In this document: positions 3,159-33,871 of the stretch, in pieces
Position numbering within the stretch: the stretch's first letter is position 1
How the letters are laid out: every line of letters starts with the position of its first letter
IMG/VR virus record: IMGVR_UViG_2563366802_000014
Source: a virus
Lineage: Duplodnaviria; Heunggongvirae; Uroviricota; Caudoviricetes
Direction: 5' to 3' (one strand)
DNA: 39,173 bases
Notes under the pieces: generated by a model
Told to the model about the DNA's origin: nothing
The model's database searches: none
The model's input: only the letters and a program-made list of their open reading frames with translations
Translations under genes and position numbers: made by a program

Positions 3159-5621
3159 TCAATTCCCTGTTAATTGCAAAACTTGCTCTTCCAGCTTTTT
3201 AACCCTGCGTCTCATCATCGCAGATTCCAGAATCAGAGCCTCTTCATAACGGATACCGTAACATTCACCAGCCTCGACGGCTTCGCGTACCAGAACCTTT
3301 GTCTGTATAAGTGGGTAAACTCCTGCAGAATGCTCTTCTTCCGTCACATCCCTGTATTCTGCCGGGGTCTCATTCCACTTGTCATAACAGATAAATGCCA
3401 GTCGTGACACATCTATGCCTTCATTCTGAAATACACTGATAACATGCTGCGCAACTGCACCAAAGTGCCATCTTGCTCCGTCTTTACCTTTCACTTCGAT
3501 CCTGTCAAGGTACTGGTATGAAACCCATTCCACTCTTTCCCATGCGTCCAGTATTTTCTCATCAATAACCTCTGGAGCAGTCTTGAAACGCGCATCGGAC
3601 AGCACCGTAAACGCTGACTGGGTAAATCCCCCCGACCATGCACGACCAGCCAACCCAAGAGAATAAGTATTCGTTGTCGATGGTGTCATGGCTGAATCAG
3701 AAAACTGTATATATTCTGAATTTCCAGTAGATATTCGAATATTTCCATTTATTAGCGACATAGTGCCTTTAGTATTATCACTATTGAATAATTTCAATTG
3801 CGAACTTATACCGCCTCCCACAGCCAGAGATACATCGCCTTCAGCAAGCATTCTGAATTTATCTGCAGAAACAAGCGTCTGGTTAGCAAGGTTAAAATAT
3901 TTAACCCACCATTCAAAACGCCCTGACATAGTCCCAACGTACTGACCAAGCGCAGGGACGTGAACAACATTGCTATTTGTAGTGCCGTCTATACTGGAAA
4001 TACCAGTCACCGCTGATGCAGAACTCAGAATATTATTTCTGTCACCCGGATGTTTAATTTCAACAAAGTTCCTGATACACCCTTCCTCGAAGGTAACCAC
4101 GCCGGAAGAACTATACATGGGGAATATTGACGCATAATTACTGCGTGCAGCATCTAAGAAACGAATGGTTGTAGATGTCTGCAGATCTCCTGATTCATTT
4201 TTCCCATCACACCCAGTCATTAGAATATTACTGGCAATATTATTATTTCCCTGAACGGTGACGCCGTGCGCCTGCTTTGCGTCCGATTCAGAGTAATCAA
4301 CCAGCACATCCGAAATCAGGTTACCAGTCCCCTTGCCAACAACTACTGCGGCGTATTTTGGGTTGTTAGCCATTACACTGCTAATGATATTATTCGTTGG
4401 GGCAGTTTCCGTCTCAGTTCCATTGTAAACAACGTGCTGACACTCTTCACCAATAACATTGCTGACAATGTTATATTTTGCTGCTGTTTTAAGTTCCACT
4501 GCACCAAACTGAGGATAATTTCTGGCTATCACACCATCAATTAGCGTATTTTGCGATGAATCAAAAAGCACACAACCTGCTTTTTTATTATTTGCGAACC
4601 CTAAATACTCTCCTCTTATATCTCTAACAATGTAACCTGACGGAATACCATTATTCGGATAAGCGATCAAGCTAAATCCTGTTCCTCGCGTATTTGTAAA
4701 TCTGATATTTTTAACCGATACATCATGGCCACCTGAAAATGACACCTGGTGTCCCTGCACACTATCATCTGATTTATTTCCCATAATTGTTAGCGTACTA
4801 AGCATGCCACCATCGGGCATGTTAAAAACCAGATGATTACCATCTCTGTCATACTGTTTTATCGTTCCCCCACCTGTTCCGTACAAGCCACAACGTGAAA
4901 GAGAAACTAAAGATGTATTGAATACCCCTTCCGGAACAAAAACACTGCTAAACGAATGTAATGATTTTGTAAAAGCATCCTTGTTATCATTTAAGATTCC
5001 ATTTTGAGCTCCAAAATCCTTAATGCTGACACCATCACGCATCTTATCCTGGAACGTTCTGTATACCGCTCCAGAACCATACTGAATAAACCAACCAAAA
5101 CCACCAATAACTCCGGCGATTGCAGCATCGACATAATTACGCATTGAGCGATTATTTACAGCGTCCTGCTCAAGTGATGGATCGGCAAGGTTAGATATTC
5201 TGTTTTGCTTTGCATCGTAATATTTTGCAAGCAAAGATGGTTTCATCAATGCACGTCTGAACCACCCAAAACATCGCTGGATCAGCATCGTCAGGTAGTC
5301 AAATGCATCCTCATGAACTTCGGGGAAAAATTTTCCCTGATTGCGAAGATCAGTCTCCTGCACCACATCAAGCACACGCTCTATCGTGATTCGCCAGCCA
5401 GCAGCAAGCGGCGACGGAAGAACCACTGCACCGCCACTATAAGTTCCCGCCCCTGTTACCGTATAACCAGCATCCAGCACTAGTTTTGTAACGTTACCGT
5501 TAAGGTCAGACACCTGAACAACCAGGTCGGATTTTTTGAAAATACGGAAGGTATACGGAAATGATGTCGTAACGCCGTTACCTGTGTATTCGTTGTGGTC
5601 AACTTCGGTTGAGACCGTCAT
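3159..5621 (-). CDS. Tailspike / tail fiber, probable polysaccharide depolymerase with C-terminal S74-type intramolecular chaperone domain
   Basis: 820 aa; N-terminal particle-binding-like segment; central Gly/Asn-rich repeats suggestive of beta-helix; C-terminal motif LSDARFKTAPE matching the S-D-x-R-x-K autoproteolytic chaperone signature; RBS GGAG upstream. Confidence 0.75.
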   Translation of the reverse strand: MTVSTEVDHNEYTGNGVTTSFPYTFRIFKKSDLVVQVSDLNGNVTKLVLDAGYTVTGAGTYSGGAVVLPSPLAAGWRITIERVLDVVQETDLRNQGKFFPEVHEDAFDYLTMLIQRCFGWFRRALMKPSLLAKYYDAKQNRISNLADPSLEQDAVNNRSMRNYVDAAIAGVIGGFGWFIQYGSGAVYRTFQDKMRDGVSIKDFGAQNGILNDNKDAFTKSLHSFSSVFVPEGVFNTSLVSLSRCGLYGTGGGTIKQYDRDGNHLVFNMPDGGMLSTLTIMGNKSDDSVQGHQVSFSGGHDVSVKNIRFTNTRGTGFSLIAYPNNGIPSGYIVRDIRGEYLGFANNKKAGCVLFDSSQNTLIDGVIARNYPQFGAVELKTAAKYNIVSNVIGEECQHVVYNGTETETAPTNNIISSVMANNPKYAAVVVGKGTGNLISDVLVDYSESDAKQAHGVTVQGNNNIASNILMTGCDGKNESGDLQTSTTIRFLDAARSNYASIFPMYSSSGVVTFEEGCIRNFVEIKHPGDRNNILSSASAVTGISSIDGTTNSNVVHVPALGQYVGTMSGRFEWWVKYFNLANQTLVSADKFRMLAEGDVSLAVGGGISSQLKLFNSDNTKGTMSLINGNIRISTGNSEYIQFSDSAMTPSTTNTYSLGLAGRAWSGGFTQSAFTVLSDARFKTAPEVIDEKILDAWERVEWVSYQYLDRIEVKGKDGARWHFGAVAQHVISVFQNEGIDVSRLAFICYDKWNETPAEYRDVTEEEHSAGVYPLIQTKVLVREAVEAGECYGIRYEEALILESAMMRRRVKKLEEQVLQLTGN

Positions 5622-5725
5622 GTTAAATCTCCAGATAGTCGCAGCACCCGTTGCGCCGCATATCTGGTTATTCTATTACCCAAAAAACCATATATGGATA
5701 GAAAGACTGTGAATATGAATAGATA

Positions 5726-5740
5726 TTACCTTTCAGGTAA
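5726..5740. promoter_or_regulatory. Operator-like palindrome TTACCtttcaGGTAA
   Basis: Perfect TTACC-N5-GGTAA inverted repeat about 40 bp upstream of the LexA box. Confidence 0.6.
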
Positions 5741-5777
5741 TTTTCAAAACGTGCTGGATAGCAAACAAATTATTTGC

Positions 5778-5797
5778 TACTGTATAAATATACAGTT
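5778..5797. promoter_or_regulatory. LexA (SOS) box TACTGTATAAATATACAGTT
   Basis: CTGT-N8-ACAG core at 5780-5795 with AT-rich spacer, close match to the enterobacterial LexA consensus, about 20 bp upstream of the 5818 start codon. Confidence 0.8.
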
Positions 5798-5817
5798 ATT
5801 GCATGGAGAAGATTAAG

Positions 5818-6075
5818 ATGCAGCAGTATCACTATCCACTGGAAGAGGGATTTACCGAAAGGATTCACACGCCGGGAGGCGTCAGGTCACTGGTGGAGGG
5901 ATCGCACTTGATGAAATTACTCCGGGATCTCGATAAGGATGGATTTAATGTCGATGGCCCACTTGCCGAACTGACTGCACTGATTAACTACGTCACCAGC
6001 TCACAGATGTCTATGCGGGATCTGCAAACACATCTCGACTATTGTGCCGAACAATTACGAAAACAAACCAGATAA
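5818..6075 (+). CDS. Small antirepressor-domain protein, SOS-controlled candidate antirepressor
   Basis: 85 aa from ATG 5818 (RBS GGAG 9 nt upstream; alternative start 5803); clearly similar to the C-terminal part of the adjacent 231-aa Bro-N protein (shared pattern LLxxL..DG..V.G..AELT ... RD.QTH..Y); preceded by LexA box. Confidence 0.6.
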   Translation: MQQYHYPLEEGFTERIHTPGGVRSLVEGSHLMKLLRDLDKDGFNVDGPLAELTALINYVTSSQMSMRDLQTHLDYCAEQLRKQTR

Positions 6076-6106
6076 GGTTTGTAATTACCAAGTGGAGTGC
6101 TTATAT

Positions 6107-6121
6107 TTACCTTTGCGGTAA
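6107..6121. promoter_or_regulatory. Operator-like palindrome TTACCtttgcGGTAA
   Basis: Perfect copy of the motif, lying in the loop between 7-bp inverted repeats GGAGTGC / GCACTCC. Confidence 0.55.
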
Positions 6122-6212
6122 ATTTACATCGCACTCCTCTTGTGCCATAGTAATCGGGCACTGGCAAAATCCAGTGCCGGGATTGGCGTCCCGGATTACT
6201 AAAAGGCGCATT

Positions 6213-6233
6213 CACCGCGCAAGCGGTTTTTTT
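6213..6233 (+). terminator. Rho-independent terminator after the small antirepressor-domain gene
   Basis: CCGC-GCAA-GCGG hairpin followed by seven T; preceded by a compact multi-hairpin element at 6150-6199. Confidence 0.5.
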
Positions 6234-6390
6234 ATGCGTATAGCACGGCCACATTCGTATTATGGTGGGCTGTGTGGGGGCACCGAAAGGTGCGCCGGGT
6301 CCTTTTAGCCGGTTACGCCAACCCTGCACAGTTCACCACCAACCGATTGGCGTCGGTAGTGGTGATTAACCAGACTAAAAGGTAACCACT

Positions 6391-7086
6391 ATGACAGCTA
6401 CAAAAAGCACGTCCATTTTTTCTTTCGAATCTCAAGCCGATATACGGGTAATCGTCATTAATGGTGAGCCATGGTTTATCGCTTCAGATGTTTGTCGGGC
6501 TATAGGCATAGCAAACCATCGAGATGCTGTTCGAAAACTTGATGATGATGAGAAGGGCGTCGCTTCAACCGACACCCCTGGCGGTGAGCAAGAATCGATC
6601 ATTATCTCCGAGTCAGGCCTCTACACACTGATCCTCCGCTGCCGCGATGCGGTGACACCAGGCACTATCCCCTACCGCTTTCGCAAATGGGTTACAGGTG
6701 AGGTTCTTCCTCAGATCCGCCGCACCGGAAGTTACATTAAAAACTCGCTCCCGCAGGAAGAACGCATAAAGATGGTTGCCGACCAGGTAGCCAACGCCAC
6801 GGCGTCAGCAGTAATGCAGGCGATGAAGATAGAGAACAAAACCTACAGCGCCCCGCTGAAGCCCGGCTACCGCAGCCTGATTCACTCGCCGTCTGGTGTT
6901 CTCGGCCTGACGGAAAACTCACTGCTGATGAATCTGCTGAACCAGTTACAGGAAGACGGGCACGACGTATCGGGCGCGGCGGCGGAGCTGACCACCATGT
7001 TTTGCTACATCGTTGGTGTGAGCAAGTGCCTGCGTGATATCCAGACGCACGCGGAGTACATCAACGACAAGGCTGGGTTCTTCTGA
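6391..7086 (+). CDS. Antirepressor, Bro-N domain protein
   Basis: N-terminal segment FSFESQADIRVIVINGEPWFIASDVCRAIG matches the Bro-N / antirepressor domain; C-terminal domain paralogous to the 85-aa protein. Confidence 0.75.
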   Translation: MTATKSTSIFSFESQADIRVIVINGEPWFIASDVCRAIGIANHRDAVRKLDDDEKGVASTDTPGGEQESIIISESGLYTLILRCRDAVTPGTIPYRFRKWVTGEVLPQIRRTGSYIKNSLPQEERIKMVADQVANATASAVMQAMKIENKTYSAPLKPGYRSLIHSPSGVLGLTENSLLMNLLNQLQEDGHDVSGAAAELTTMFCYIVGVSKCLRDIQTHAEYINDKAGFF

Positions 7087-7153
7087 CGGGCGGCGGCACA
7101 GGGACGTGCCTTTAAAATAATCATTGGCGATGTGATGTAGATTCGCGTAATAT

Positions 7154-7168
7154 TACCTTACGGGTAAA
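7154..7168. promoter_or_regulatory. Operator-like palindrome TTACCttacgGGTAA
   Basis: Perfect copy about 20 bp upstream of a -10-like TATATT and the RBS GAGGTG of the 7206 gene. Confidence 0.6.
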
Positions 7169-7205
7169 CCCCGTTTAATGGCGTTTCTATATTATGAGGT
7201 GATGT

Positions 7206-7841
7206 ATGCCACAACAACTGCTGAATCCGGCAAAGGTTACTGAAGTTTTCGCTCATCTGAACGAAACTCCAGACAACCGCGCCCTGTATTCAGAGTTAGT
7301 GAACGGCAACGATGTCACATCTGATGTCAAAGGCGTTTCTCTGGCTCCTGGATACCGCGTTGTCCGTGTAGACGATCGTAAGAAAGGCGAGATTCCACAG
7401 GCGCACTTCGAACTGGCATTGATAAATGACCTCACCGAAGAGGTAGTGTATTACAATCGTGTCATTATCCAACCTGACAGCTATCTTAACTGCCGACCTG
7501 TCACGCAGATATTGGTATGGAGAACCCAGAAGCCTAAGCATCGTGCTGTGCTTCATGATTTCGCCGGCATCATCTTCATGAACTACCTCTTGGAACGGTA
7601 CGATATCATCGTGTCAGATCGCAACCAGACTCATGAAGGCATGTCGTTCTGGCAGGCTCGCATGTATGACGCACTGGAACTTGGCCTCCACCTCTATGGT
7701 TACGACATGATGACATGCGAGCTGATAGAGATGAATAACGAGGAAGAGCTTGAGAAAGGTGAAACCTGGTTGTGGGGTGATGCGGAAAACTTCCAAAACA
7801 GATTGGCCATAATTTCAAAGCATAAGCTGCCAATAAAATAG
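7206..7841 (+). CDS. Hypothetical protein (211 aa), accessory gene with own operator and terminator
   Basis: ORF from track; strong RBS GAGGTG; acidic soluble protein with no motif I recognise. Confidence 0.6.
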   Translation: MPQQLLNPAKVTEVFAHLNETPDNRALYSELVNGNDVTSDVKGVSLAPGYRVVRVDDRKKGEIPQAHFELALINDLTEEVVYYNRVIIQPDSYLNCRPVTQILVWRTQKPKHRAVLHDFAGIIFMNYLLERYDIIVSDRNQTHEGMSFWQARMYDALELGLHLYGYDMMTCELIEMNNEEELEKGETWLWGDAENFQNRLAIISKHKLPIK

Positions 7842-24848: not shown

Positions 24849-24925
24849 GTGGCATTAGCTCAGTCGGACAGAGCAACCGCCTTCTAAGCGGTTGGTCGCA
24901 GGTTCGAATCCTGCATGCCACGCCA
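24849..24925 (+). tRNA. tRNA-Arg (anticodon UCU)
   Basis: Hand-folded cloverleaf: 7-bp acceptor stem GTGGCAT/ATGCCAC, D-arm GCTC..GAGC, anticodon stem ACCGC/GCGGT with loop CTTCTAA (anticodon TCT), T-arm GCAGG-TTCGAAT-CCTGC, discriminator G and encoded CCA. Confidence 0.85.
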
Positions 24926-33286: not shown

Positions 33287-33871
33287 ATGAAAAGTATCCA
33301 GGACGTCCGCAGGCAAAATCTCAACGACTTGATCGACCGTGAATTCAATGGTGTTCAGACGCGGATGGCAGAAAAACTTGGAACTCAGGCAAATCTGGTA
33401 AACCGCTGGGCTCTTGGCAAGAAGGTTATCGGCGACCAGGTTGCGCGAAAAATTGAAGCTGCCGCCAATAAACCCCGTAACTGGCTTGATATCGATCGCT
33501 CGCTTTCTCAGGAAGGTTTTCAGCCTGTCGGCCCAAGCGATATTGGTCAGCTGGCAGCTCACAACCTGGAACGCTGGATGAGTGAAAGCCGCGACCTTTC
33601 AACTCAGGGAAAACTTCACCGCGCATCCGGCGTCGCCCAGGTGACAATAAGCCGCCTGTTAAACAATGAGGTCAGCGTTTCCATTTCCACCCTGGAGAAT
33701 GTTGCATCTGCATTCGGGCGTCACGGATATGAACTACTGATTCATCCGCATGACCCTGCAACTATCAACTATGACCGCTCGCGCTACGCATTGTTACCTG
33801 AAACAGAGAAGGCAAAGATCGAAAGTTACATTGAATTTGTCATCAACCAGAACGAAAAAAACAAACAATAA
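33287..33871 (+). CDS. Prophage repressor candidate, tandem-HTH protein without recognisable autocleavage domain
   Basis: N-terminal HTH (QTRMAEKLGTQANLVNRWALGKK) and a second HTH-like segment (ASGVAQVTISRLLNNEVSVSISTLENVASAFG); no Ala-Gly / Ser-Lys peptidase signature seen; divergent from Cro-like gene. Confidence 0.6.
   Translation: MKSIQDVRRQNLNDLIDREFNGVQTRMAEKLGTQANLVNRWALGKKVIGDQVARKIEAAANKPRNWLDIDRSLSQEGFQPVGPSDIGQLAAHNLERWMSESRDLSTQGKLHRASGVAQVTISRLLNNEVSVSISTLENVASAFGRHGYELLIHPHDPATINYDRSRYALLPETEKAKIESYIEFVINQNEKNKQ

Follow-up and report, generated by a model that had tools for sequence, protein, structure and literature searches.

The closest described relative of the element analysed here is IsrK of the Gifsy-1 prophage of Salmonella (Hershko-Shalev et al., 2016; PMC4825925). 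In that prophage a fraction of the IsrK transcripts passes the terminator and gives the antirepressor mRNA (PMC4825925), IsrK supplied in trans raised an anrP translational fusion 139-fold, and the pairs G28:C162 and G31:C159 were mutated and compensated experimentally (PMC4825925, Table 1). Mutations of b1 in cis (G28A and G31A) increased basal translation (PMC4825925, Table 1D), and the authors invoke alternative mRNA structures together with translational coupling through "orf45" (PMC4825925).

A second line of work concerns the immI operon of P1/P7 (Citron and Schuster, 1990, cited in PMC8198154), which comprises the a1/b1 targets and the C4 antisense RNA (Rfam RF03163 and RF01695), with C4 repressing ant. 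In P7 a C1 operator and a promoter are followed by a1/b1, which has a terminator-like hairpin and scores 43.7 bits with the Rfam isrK model, and then by c4, icd and ant. A third relative is found in P4, whose seqA was named a structural homologue of IsrK by the Gifsy-1 authors (PMC4825925). Going by its description, the P4 CI system resembles the present locus in having a processed leader RNA that pairs with two complements, one upstream and one downstream, on the same transcript, but it acts through premature transcription termination of the replication genes, whereas translational control of an antirepressor is proposed here. The sar RNA of P22 is an opposite-strand transcript across the arc-ant junction and works with the ribbon-helix-helix repressors Arc and Mnt. 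Like the locus described here, it is a case of small RNA control of antirepressor translation, which it limits through base pairing with ant around the ribosome-binding site (PMC12197685); in contrast, both RNAs of the present locus lie on the ant strand and would be co-transcribed with ant.

In the window, by which we mean the entire 39,173 nt of viral DNA that was analysed, positions 6158-6233 of the + strand match the Rfam model isrK (RF01394) over its full length (77.9 bits against a gathering threshold of 50, E = 3.4e-15, model positions 1-77 of 77), and judged by this match the segment belongs to IsrK, a type of phage small RNA that has already been described; this copy of it had not been annotated. 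According to fold prediction and a terminator scan, it has a pair of neighbouring hairpins at its 5' end, followed by an unpaired linker and then by a Rho-independent terminator. These are the same parts as in Gifsy-1 IsrK, and the predicted terminated form would be about 76 nt long. The earlier note on this DNA had offered a structured 3' UTR, an attenuator or a small RNA as possible identities, and the last of these is borne out by the full-length, above-threshold family match and by a predicted, conserved promoter of its own. The Rfam model c4-a1b1 (RF03163) aligns at 6145-6197 with 45.1 bits, 1.6 below its gathering threshold of 46.7, and the homologues in Stx phages score 50.1 and 50.6 bits with this model, above gathering. 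In Rfam, C4 and c4-a1b1 both belong to clan CL00128, and isrK is assigned to no clan.

The phage is phiV10/epsilon15-like and a podovirus, whereas Gifsy-1 is lambdoid. Related sequence occurs in 941 of 5426 complete E. coli genomes, E. coli APEC O1 carries a 99.4% identical copy (NC_008563, 2745128-2745438), and the IsrK/C4 circuit is annotated neither in the phiV10 record nor in RefSeq. A strict pattern scan of viral contigs returned 8 loci and a looser scan of genome contigs at least 120; among the matches listed from the looser scan, the element is present across distant host groups including Enterobacterales, Pseudomonas, Vibrio and Marinomonas. The best explanation as a whole, to which we give a probability of roughly three in four, is that this IsrK serves as the "a1/b1" leader in a c4-ant immunity module of the P1 type, carried by a phiV10/epsilon15-like prophage of E. 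coli.

A gene for a C4-type antisense RNA lies at 6258-6343 (+) (Rfam RF01695, 77.7 bits, gathering 45), beginning 25 nt downstream of IsrK on the same strand and placed between IsrK and ant, and in all 21 other loci in which both could be located isrK precedes C4 by 21-26 nt. The C4 word a' (CCTTTTAG, 6301-6308, +) forms a hairpin loop and b' (ACGCCAA, 6315-6321, +) is unpaired in the Rfam C4 consensus structure. On the IsrK side, b1 (TTGGCGT, 6183-6189) is displayed in the loop of the second hairpin (6178-6193, +), and a1 (CTAAAAGG, 6199-6206, +) occupies the single-stranded linker. Both words return in the target region of the ant leader (6347-6382, +), as b2 (TTGGCGT, 6347-6353) and as a2 (CTAAAAGG, 6375-6382), the latter containing the Shine-Dalgarno sequence of ant and ending 8 nt before the ATG at 6391. 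The identity extends to a 10-mer for b1 = b2 (GATTGGCGTC, 6181-6190 and 6345-6354) and to a 9-mer for a1 = a2 (ACTAAAAGG, 6198-6206 and 6374-6382). The a1/b1 words are complementary to a'/b' without interruption, b across 7 bp and a across 8 bp; in the entire window the + strand contains CTAAAAGG only twice and CCTTTTAG only once. Since IsrK holds exact copies of both target words, it would bind the same two C4 sites as the leader does and, carrying copies of the ant ribosome-binding region, it could bind the C4 antisense RNA. The C4 gene and the complementarities that explain the element had been overlooked in the earlier note.

These words vary together between phages. Among 134 loci with the hairpin pattern, the 7-mer in the loop of hairpin 2 was followed downstream by its exact reverse complement and then by an exact direct copy in 109, compared with 0 in each of two controls, and 34 different b 7-mers were represented. 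A shared a1/a'/a2 word of at least 6 nt was found in 75 of these 109 loci (64 distinct words) against 1/109 when the linker was shuffled, and in 63 of the 75 loci with such a word a2 ends 8-11 nt upstream of the next ATG. Specificity words differ between phages, as do the b1 loops of the heteroimmune P1 and P7.

The module has its parts in the order known from P1/P7. A repressor operator, here a putative one, and a promoter, here a predicted one, come first; then follow hairpin 1, a second hairpin whose loop presents b1, the linker with a1, a terminator-like hairpin, C4, b2/a2 over a ribosome-binding site, and the antirepressor gene. It differs in that P1/P7 have icd between c4 and ant, with C4 occluding the icd ribosome-binding site, whereas in the window ant follows c4 directly, an icd-like gene between the two is absent, and the ant site itself would be covered. 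The earlier note had called the two flanking genes antirepressor-type, which is a fair description: the 231-aa product of ant (6391-7086, +) has a Bro-N domain and an Ant C-terminal domain (Pfam Bro-N, 2.3e-21; PHROG 130 "anti-repressor Ant", 3.7e-63), and the upstream 90-aa protein matches the family of the Ant C-terminal domain, with zero Pfam families above the cut-off.

Upstream of IsrK lies a predicted sigma-70 promoter (6123-6151, +) consisting of a -35 hexamer TTTACA (6123-6128), a 17-nt spacer and a TG-extended -10 hexamer CATAGT (6146-6151); the promoter scan scored it as a 9/12 match to consensus, and transcription is predicted to start at about 6158. In 99 loci, with promoter positions numbered relative to the base at which hairpin 1 begins, upstream conservation is confined to -35/-34 (T in 91/99; T in 52 and G in 44) and to -12/-11/-7 (T in 71, A in 83 and T in 85), and A8 and T12 of alignment A1 show conservation of 90% or more. 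The operator-like palindrome TTACC-TTTGC-GGTAA at 6107-6121 has extended arms (6102-6126) that abut or overlap the -35 hexamer, and TTACC-N5-GGTAA occurs 10 times in the window, where 0.04 copies would be expected. As the earlier note had reported, this operator sits inside a 7-bp inverted repeat, which we find as an exact GGAGTGC/GCACTCC within a 12-nt, 92% inverted repeat (6089-6100 / 6131-6142). The prophage repressor, for which a 194-aa HTH protein (33287-33871) is a candidate, would presumably bind the palindrome, whose symmetry sets it apart from the asymmetric 17-bp C1 site of P1/P7.

By analogy with Gifsy-1 and P1/P7, we infer that the circuit in this prophage would work as follows. 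The promoter beside the repressor-operator palindrome would start transcription at about 6158; most transcripts would end at 6214-6233 as the small RNA of about 76 nt, and the remainder would read through into the C4 RNA and the ant mRNA, so that C4 would be co-transcribed with its target. C4 a'/b' would pair with a2/b2 of the ant leader and cover the Shine-Dalgarno sequence, leaving the antirepressor untranslated. IsrK would bind both C4 sites, in cis when it is part of the read-through precursor and in trans when it is the free short RNA. It would thereby compete against the ant leader for binding to C4 and allow more Ant translation when the promoter is derepressed, with the ratio of terminated to read-through transcripts setting a threshold.

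Several details invite comparison with Gifsy-1. If +1 is 6158, the pairs G6185:C6319 and G6188:C6316 become +28:+162 and +31:+159, so that these b1:b' pairs correspond to the ones mutated and compensated in Gifsy-1. The order of parts is also alike, with a processed structured RNA next to IsrK (STnc1160/"orf45" in Gifsy-1, C4 here) and the antirepressor gene after it. In contrast, anrP is coupled to orf45 by a stop/start overlap (AUGA), whereas ant has its own Shine-Dalgarno sequence in a2. The candidate counterpart of orf45, the open reading frame 6262-6369, terminates 22 nt ahead of the ATG of ant, had zero Pfam matches and is not conserved as an open frame (79 loci; median 29 codons, against 26 and 27 in the other frames), and we rejected it as a conserved small ORF. 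Because of this distance and of the unconserved frame, the translational-coupling step of Gifsy-1 cannot be transferred to this locus. The direction of regulation given above is tentative, since a simple decoy model fails to predict the effect that G28A and G31A have in cis in Gifsy-1.

The intrinsic terminator of IsrK (6214-6233, +) is formed by an ACCGC-GCAA-GCGGT stem-loop (6214-6227) and a run of seven T to 6233 and is part of the Rfam isrK model. The earlier note had described it as CCGC-GCAA-GCGG with seven T, and it is indeed there; hairpin and T run are kept in 81 of 99 homologous loci. In read-through RNA it is enclosed by a further stem between GCGCAT (6206-6211) and ATGCGT (6234-6239, +), which forms in the minimum-energy fold of 6158-6410 and co-varies, the duplex energy averaging -9.6 kcal/mol for a locus's own flanks and -7.45 kcal/mol for cross-locus flanks (p = 2.5e-10). 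This arrangement gives some weight to a leader attenuator of the P4 CI type, in which C4 binding to nascent a1/b1 would decide whether transcription stops at 6214-6233, so that the element would mainly govern read-through into c4-ant and not serve as a free decoy: a1 ends 8 nt before the terminator stem, and the enclosing stem shares G6206 with a1. The Gifsy-1 authors raised such a device as an idea by analogy with seqA/CI/seqC of P4, and IsrK in trans increased a transcriptional fusion 8-fold (PMC4825925). However, the 8-fold transcriptional effect is far below the translational one, and constitutive STnc1160/orf45, the equivalent of C4, strengthened rather than reduced the IsrK-mediated growth arrest (PMC4825925). 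Moreover, the 18 of 99 loci without a recognisable terminator have nevertheless retained a1/b1. We therefore regard attenuation by C4 as possible, though we would not expect it to be the answer; it is compatible with the a1/b1 target-mimic reading and does not exclude it. The attenuator named in the earlier note is partly right in so far as read-through of this terminator is known to be partial in Gifsy-1 (PMC4825925).

The a1/b1 words could instead serve as an aid to folding or processing in cis, keeping a'/b' of C4 paired and inactive for as long as C4 has not been excised; the upstream copies would then matter in cis alone, and the short RNA would be a by-product. In the read-through RNA 6158-6410, a1/b1 is paired in cis with a'/b' by the minimum-energy fold as well as by the centroid fold, and the C4 RNA of P1 is reportedly processed from a precursor. 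This alternative nonetheless appears doubtful to us, as conservation of the terminator in 81/99 loci argues that the short form of IsrK is under selection, and IsrK in trans suffices for activation of translation in Gifsy-1 by way of the same base pairs (PMC4825925).

All sequence features placed by the earlier note, namely the hairpins, the terminator, the outer arms and the operator, are present where it had put them. Its first hairpin had been drawn with 8 bp, and the arms GGCACTGG (6157-6164) and CCAGTGCC (6171-6178) are indeed 100% complementary over 8 nt. The stem that we retain (6158-6177, +; 7 bp, loop CAAAAU) is 87% paired among 87 distinct homologues, with heavy covariation that is seen at 5/7 pairs and includes one pair found as GC in 32, UA in 27, CG in 11 and AU in 10 sequences. 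G6157-C6178 was rejected as an eighth pair, being kept in only 20/87 sequences, and the Rfam model pairs C6178 with G6193. The core of this hairpin, GCAAAAUC, stands in capitals in the consensus lines of both isrK and c4-a1b1. The 4-bp hairpin 2 of the earlier note (GGGA 6179-6182 / TCCC 6189-6192) is present as well and can be lengthened to CCGGGA/TCCCGG; its GGG/CCC showed zero variation among homologues, which is uninformative either way, these bases having been set by the search pattern. At one pair of hairpin 1, 22/87 sequences have GU, and such G-U pairs point to the + strand. A minus-strand RNA was rejected, as its fold is less extreme (z = -4.8 against -6.7) and the G-U pairs, T tract, promoter and Rfam matches all favour the + strand.

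The loop of hairpin 1 is A-rich, nearly invariant and partnerless within the module; its complement ATTTTG was found nowhere in 6158-6460 and downstream in only 1/99 loci. Such a loop, together with the long U tail at the terminator and the Rfam name "isrK Hfq binding RNA", might suggest a small RNA that depends on Hfq and acts in trans, chiefly on host mRNAs. Hfq binding is in this instance a family label only. We know of no host target of IsrK. The variable parts, b1 and a1, follow the adjacent C4 and not host sequence, and the element recurs, among the matches listed, in host groups as different as Enterobacterales, Pseudomonas, Vibrio and Marinomonas, which makes host mRNAs an unlikely main target.

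Folding and covariance, the checks named in the earlier note, gave a divided answer on its three-way junction. The minimum-energy fold of 6140-6233 is stable (-46 kcal/mol, z = -6.7, with 0 of 200 shuffles as good) and matches the hand-drawn junction, and the outer arms TAATC (6151-6155) and GATTA (6194-6198) sit in a 14-nt, 86% inverted repeat. However, whereas hairpin 1 co-varies, the outer stem is paired in just 40.9% of cells across the 87 homologues, a chance level given that slid controls reach 34-49%, and in close relatives its changes are one-sided or disruptive only. Its 5' arm moreover falls after the conserved -10 hexamer and before the predicted start, and the three-way junction is for these two reasons unsupported and was rejected. 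The extra minimum-energy stem 6141-6146 / 6205-6210 was likewise rejected, as it uses the promoter spacer and would be absent from an RNA starting at 6158, and the evolutionarily supported partner of 6206-6211 is 6234-6239 instead. A structured 3' UTR with terminator of the upstream 90-aa gene (the 85-aa gene of the earlier note), shaped as this junction and having no RNA function of its own, is thus very improbable as the main role even though the junction is the minimum-energy fold and transcripts of that gene would run into the terminator at 6214-6233, since beyond the chance-level outer stem and the position of its 5' arm in the promoter, in other phages the same element and promoter geometry follow upstream genes that are unrelated, namely ninE, KilA-N and methyltransferase genes, and the three-way co-variation with C4 and the ant leader would be left unexplained.

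The analogy with the P22 immunity region that the earlier note had drawn points to the wrong family. No sar-like Rfam match was obtained in 5600-7300 at E up to 10, the 90-aa protein had no Pfam family above the cut-off, and the layout is that of P1/P7 immI; antisense control of the sar type was rejected on the zero matches in 5600-7300 and on the position of the structured RNA on the + strand.

In itself the element is ordinary and would not surprise a specialist in phage P1 immunity. The comparison of sequences would place ant of a phiV10-like prophage under a two-RNA control circuit of IsrK and C4, and joins the work on Gifsy-1 IsrK with that on P1/P7 C4, which are separate in the literature examined: the Gifsy-1 paper carries no citation of P1 (PMC4825925), and a comparative study of APSE and a 2025 review name IsrK and C4 side by side and unlinked. 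We speculate that IsrK-family RNAs may everywhere be the a1/b1 arm of C4 immunity modules, acting as specificity-matched "anti-antisense" target mimics, a wider reading that we consider, taken as a whole, to have about an even chance of holding. If it does hold, a target mimic would share its promoter with the C4 that it binds, so that derepression is converted into antirepressor translation; "orf45"/STnc1160 of Gifsy-1 would be a C4 RNA; and the co-varying a and b words (34 b and 64 a words here) would define heteroimmunity classes among prophages of Proteobacteria. The 109 loci with their 34 b words amount to natural "compensatory mutants", which could guide tests of how the target copies upstream of C4 tune an antisense immunity switch and determine heteroimmunity. 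One heteroimmune homologue, of the APSE type, carries TTTGAGAC and CTAACAAGG as its a and b words.

The Rfam scan covered the whole window and returned three matches above threshold, among them isrK (RF01394) at 6158-6233 on the plus strand, spanning the full model (77.9 bits; gathering score 50), and C4 antisense RNA (RF01695) at 6258-6343 on the same strand (77.7 bits; gathering score 45). In a permissive Rfam scan, c4-a1b1 (RF03163, "a1, b1 targets of C4 antisense RNA") was placed at 6145-6197, below threshold at 45.1 against 46.7 bits. The same scan gave no sar-like match at E up to 10 in 5600-7300, and the module is not P22-like, so that the analogy with regulatory RNAs of the P22 immunity region drawn in the earlier note was not borne out. 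The product of the gene following C4 (6391-7086) is a Bro-N antirepressor (Pfam, 2.3e-21; PHROG "anti-repressor Ant", 3.7e-63), and the upstream 90-aa protein belongs to the family of the Ant C-terminal domain (phrog_450). The element is an Rfam isrK member, equivalent to the a1/b1 leader in immI modules of the P1 type; elements of this kind are already known, and the copy in the window simply lacks annotation. The window itself is an E. coli prophage of the phiV10/epsilon15-like type (Uetakevirus), with 95-98% identity over 5600-7200 to phiV10, vB_EcoP_ZX5 and TL-2011b. The sole annotation at the element in the phiV10 record is "terminator", and in RefSeq E. coli genomes, where related sequence is present in 941 of 5426 complete genomes, the BRO-N gene alone is annotated here. 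A tRNA-Arg (anticodon TCT; 24849-24925, Rfam tRNA match 24849-24922) lies in the middle of this prophage-sized window, approximately 320 nt from an operator palindrome.

Two sets of complementary words link IsrK, C4 and the ant leader. The word b1 (TTGGCGT, 6183-6189) occupies the hairpin-2 loop of IsrK, its counterpart b' (ACGCCAA, 6315-6321) falls in a stretch of C4 that is unpaired in the Rfam consensus structure, and b2 (TTGGCGT, 6347-6353) lies in the ant leader, the identity between b1 and b2 extending to GATTGGCGTC (6181-6190 and 6345-6354). Similarly, a1 (CTAAAAGG, 6199-6206) lies in the single-stranded linker, a' (CCTTTTAG, 6301-6308) is in a hairpin loop of the C4 consensus structure, and a2 (CTAAAAGG, 6375-6382) is the Shine-Dalgarno sequence of ant, 8 nt before the ATG at 6391; here the identity extends to ACTAAAAGG (6198-6206 and 6374-6382). 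On the plus strand of the 39-kb window, CTAAAAGG occurs just twice and CCTTTTAG just once. In the minimum-energy fold of 6158-6410, a1/b1 are paired with a'/b' in cis, in line with the proposed competition of IsrK for C4. By eye, the ant leader may also form a hairpin at 6357-6390 (TAGTGGT 6357-6363 / ACCACTA 6384-6390) with a2 and the Shine-Dalgarno sequence in its loop, and a GGTGGTGA-like motif that is complementary to the C4 3' arm recurs after b2 among homologues.

These words were followed through 18 phage loci obtained by BLAST (phiV10, Stx phages, SfV, APSE, Hafnia yong2, Tyrion and a Klebsiella phage) and, by searching with a hairpin-1/hairpin-2 pattern, 8 IMG/VR contigs and at least 120 genome contigs spanning Enterobacterales, Pseudomonas, Vibrio, Aeromonas, Marinomonas, Xanthomonas, Desulfobacterota and others. 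Wherever both families were located in another locus (21 of 21), isrK lay 21-26 nt upstream of C4. In 109 of the 134 pattern matches listed, the exact reverse complement of the hairpin-2 loop 7-mer occurred downstream of it and, beyond that, the 7-mer itself was repeated exactly, with at least 34 different 7-mers represented; controls using upstream sequence or a shuffled word gave 0 each. In 75 of these 109, again among the matches listed, the linker contained a word of at least 6 nt that recurred as its reverse complement immediately 5' of b' and in direct orientation beyond b2 (shuffled-linker control, 1/109). At least 64 distinct a words were found, and for 63 of the 75 matches listed the distance from the end of a2 to the next ATG was 8-11 nt. 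The words a1/a'/a2 and b1/b'/b2, named after the P1/P7 C4 system, thus show three-way co-variation.

Every feature listed in the earlier note was found in place by inspection of the sequence, including the 8-bp inverted repeat of hairpin 1 (GGCACTGG 6157-6164 / CCAGTGCC 6171-6178), the hairpin-2 arms (GGGA 6179-6182 / TCCC 6189-6192), the outer stem (TAATC 6151-6155 / GATTA 6194-6198) and the terminator (ACCGC-GCAA-GCGGT, 6214-6227, then seven T to 6233). The minimum-energy fold of the plus strand of 6140-6233 (-46 kcal/mol, z = -6.7, equalled by 0 of 200 shuffles) is exactly the three-way junction that had been drawn by hand, and the minus strand folds more weakly (z = -4.8). An alignment of 87 distinct homologues upheld only part of this drawing. 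In hairpin 1, pairing was at 87% and covariation was strong (one pair being GC 32, UA 27, CG 11 and AU 10), and G-U pairs, present in 22 of 87 sequences at one position, indicate that the RNA strand is plus, while its eighth pair, G6157-C6178, was kept in just 20 of the 87. The invariance of GGG/CCC in hairpin 2 is uninformative since the search pattern fixed those bases. For the outer stem, 40.9% of cells were paired, a value inside the 34-49% range of slid controls, and the three-way junction is not a conserved feature. The hairpin-1 loop (6164-6171) reads GCAAAATC, its core being capitalised in the isrK and c4-a1b1 consensus lines of Rfam and swapped for TTATAAAGC in an SfV/Stx subgroup; the complement of this loop was present downstream in just 1 of 99 loci. 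The terminator was found in 81 of 99 loci. It is flanked by GCGCAT (6206-6211) and ATGCGT (6234-6239), which are complementary to each other but would both be present, and so able to pair, only in read-through RNA, and across approximately 80 loci this complementarity was locus-specific (own -9.6 versus cross-locus -7.45 kcal/mol, p = 2.5e-10), indicating that the terminator sits on a longer stem in read-through RNA.

The promoter predicted by a scan comprises TTTACA (6123-6128), a 17-nt spacer and a TG-extended CATAGT (6146-6151). Over the 50 nt that precede hairpin 1, only -35/-34 and -12/-11/-7 were informative across 99 loci; these positions have textbook sigma-70 geometry and place the predicted start where hairpin 1 begins, at approximately 6158, which is also where the Rfam model starts (position 1). 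Between the -10 hexamer and this +1 lies the 5' arm of the reader's outer stem (6151-6155). The -35 hexamer adjoins the putative operator palindrome TTACC-TTTGC-GGTAA (6107-6121), itself inside a longer inverted repeat (6089-6100 / 6131-6142). TTACC-N5-GGTAA occurs 10 times in the prophage against 0.04 expected, as 15-nt sites starting at 5726, 6107, 7153, 24512, 27657, 30824, 30886, 33217, 33929 and 33991, a dispersed operator set that recalls that of P1 C1. The three palindromes near the element precede plus-strand genes (the 90-aa gene, isrK-c4-ant and a 211-aa gene), and three more lie on either side of a 194-aa double-HTH gene (33287-33871), whose product is likely the prophage repressor. 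Another promoter-like site (TTGTAA, 17-nt spacer, TATATT; 6079-6107) has its -10 hexamer adjoining the 6107-6121 palindrome, so that two tandem promoter-like sites flank this putative operator, an arrangement that resembles P51a/P51b of P1 immI. Upstream of the 90-aa gene, a near-consensus LexA/SOS box, CTGTATAAATATACAG (5780-5795; TACTGTATAAATATACAGTT when flanks are included), ends 8 nt before the ATG of that gene at 5803. The encoded protein shares homology with the C-terminal domain of the 231-aa Ant. Together these features suggest a putative SOS-induced small antirepressor beside the RNA-controlled Ant, like those of the Gifsy phages or 186 Tum.

The same order is found in P7, where a C1 operator and a TTGACC-17-TATAGT promoter are followed by hairpin 1, hairpin 2 (b1 TTTAGCAG), a linker (a1 GATTGTG), a terminator-like hairpin, c4 (a' CACAATC, b' CTGCTAA), b2, a2 over the icd ribosome-binding site, icd and ant. 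This likeness, together with a score of 43.7 bits for the P7 leader on the isrK model, indicates that IsrK and "c4-a1b1" are the same object in the module, with and without the terminator. Unlike P1/P7, the window module has no icd, and unlike Gifsy-1, no coupled orf45. The Gifsy-1 "orf45"/STnc1160 is a processed stable RNA conserved in nucleotide but not amino-acid sequence (Gifsy-1 paper, PMC4825925), as one would expect if it were a C4 RNA. That paper likened IsrK to P4 seqA and did not cite P1 (PMC4825925), and the open-access texts of the APSE study and a 2025 review (PMC12197685) name IsrK and C4 separately without linking them. IsrK as the a1/b1 arm of C4 modules may therefore be an under-appreciated link, although we do not claim it as new.

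In P1/P7, according to the summaries in PMC8198154 and PMC12197685, C4 RNA pairs at the ribosome-binding region of its co-transcribed target and blocks antirepressor synthesis (Citron and Schuster, 1990). In Gifsy-1, the IsrK terminator stops some transcripts from the isrK promoter, and others continue into "orf45"-anrP. An anrP translational fusion rose 139-fold when short IsrK was provided in trans, and the pairs G28:C162 and G31:C159 were confirmed by compensatory mutation (PMC4825925). Counted from 6158, the b1:b' pairs of the window are exactly G28:C162 and G31:C159. The best reading, by analogy with these systems, is that C4 would cover a2/b2 and silence ant, that IsrK, carrying the same two words, would compete for C4 both in cis and in trans, and that derepression of the operator-controlled promoter would shift the balance to Ant translation. 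Less probably, the element may serve as an attenuator, with termination at 6233 modulated by C4, or may act in cis in folding or processing. A simple decoy model does not predict that b1 mutations in cis raise basal expression, as they do in Gifsy-1 (PMC4825925). Coupling through an orf45 equivalent was rejected for the window, as the corresponding ORF (6262-6369) ends 22 nt short of the ant ATG and ORFs of this kind lack family-wide conservation.

Among the comparison loci, phage PPyecE_EH1910 (L020) carries a second C4 copy (30-117, 78.8 bits) approximately 570 nt upstream of its own isrK-C4 pair, and type II hammerhead ribozymes (52-69 bits) lie near the isrK-C4 modules of two IMG/VR viral contigs, at 721-790 and 2899-2970 in L006 and at 2177-2269 and 4771-4835 in L008.
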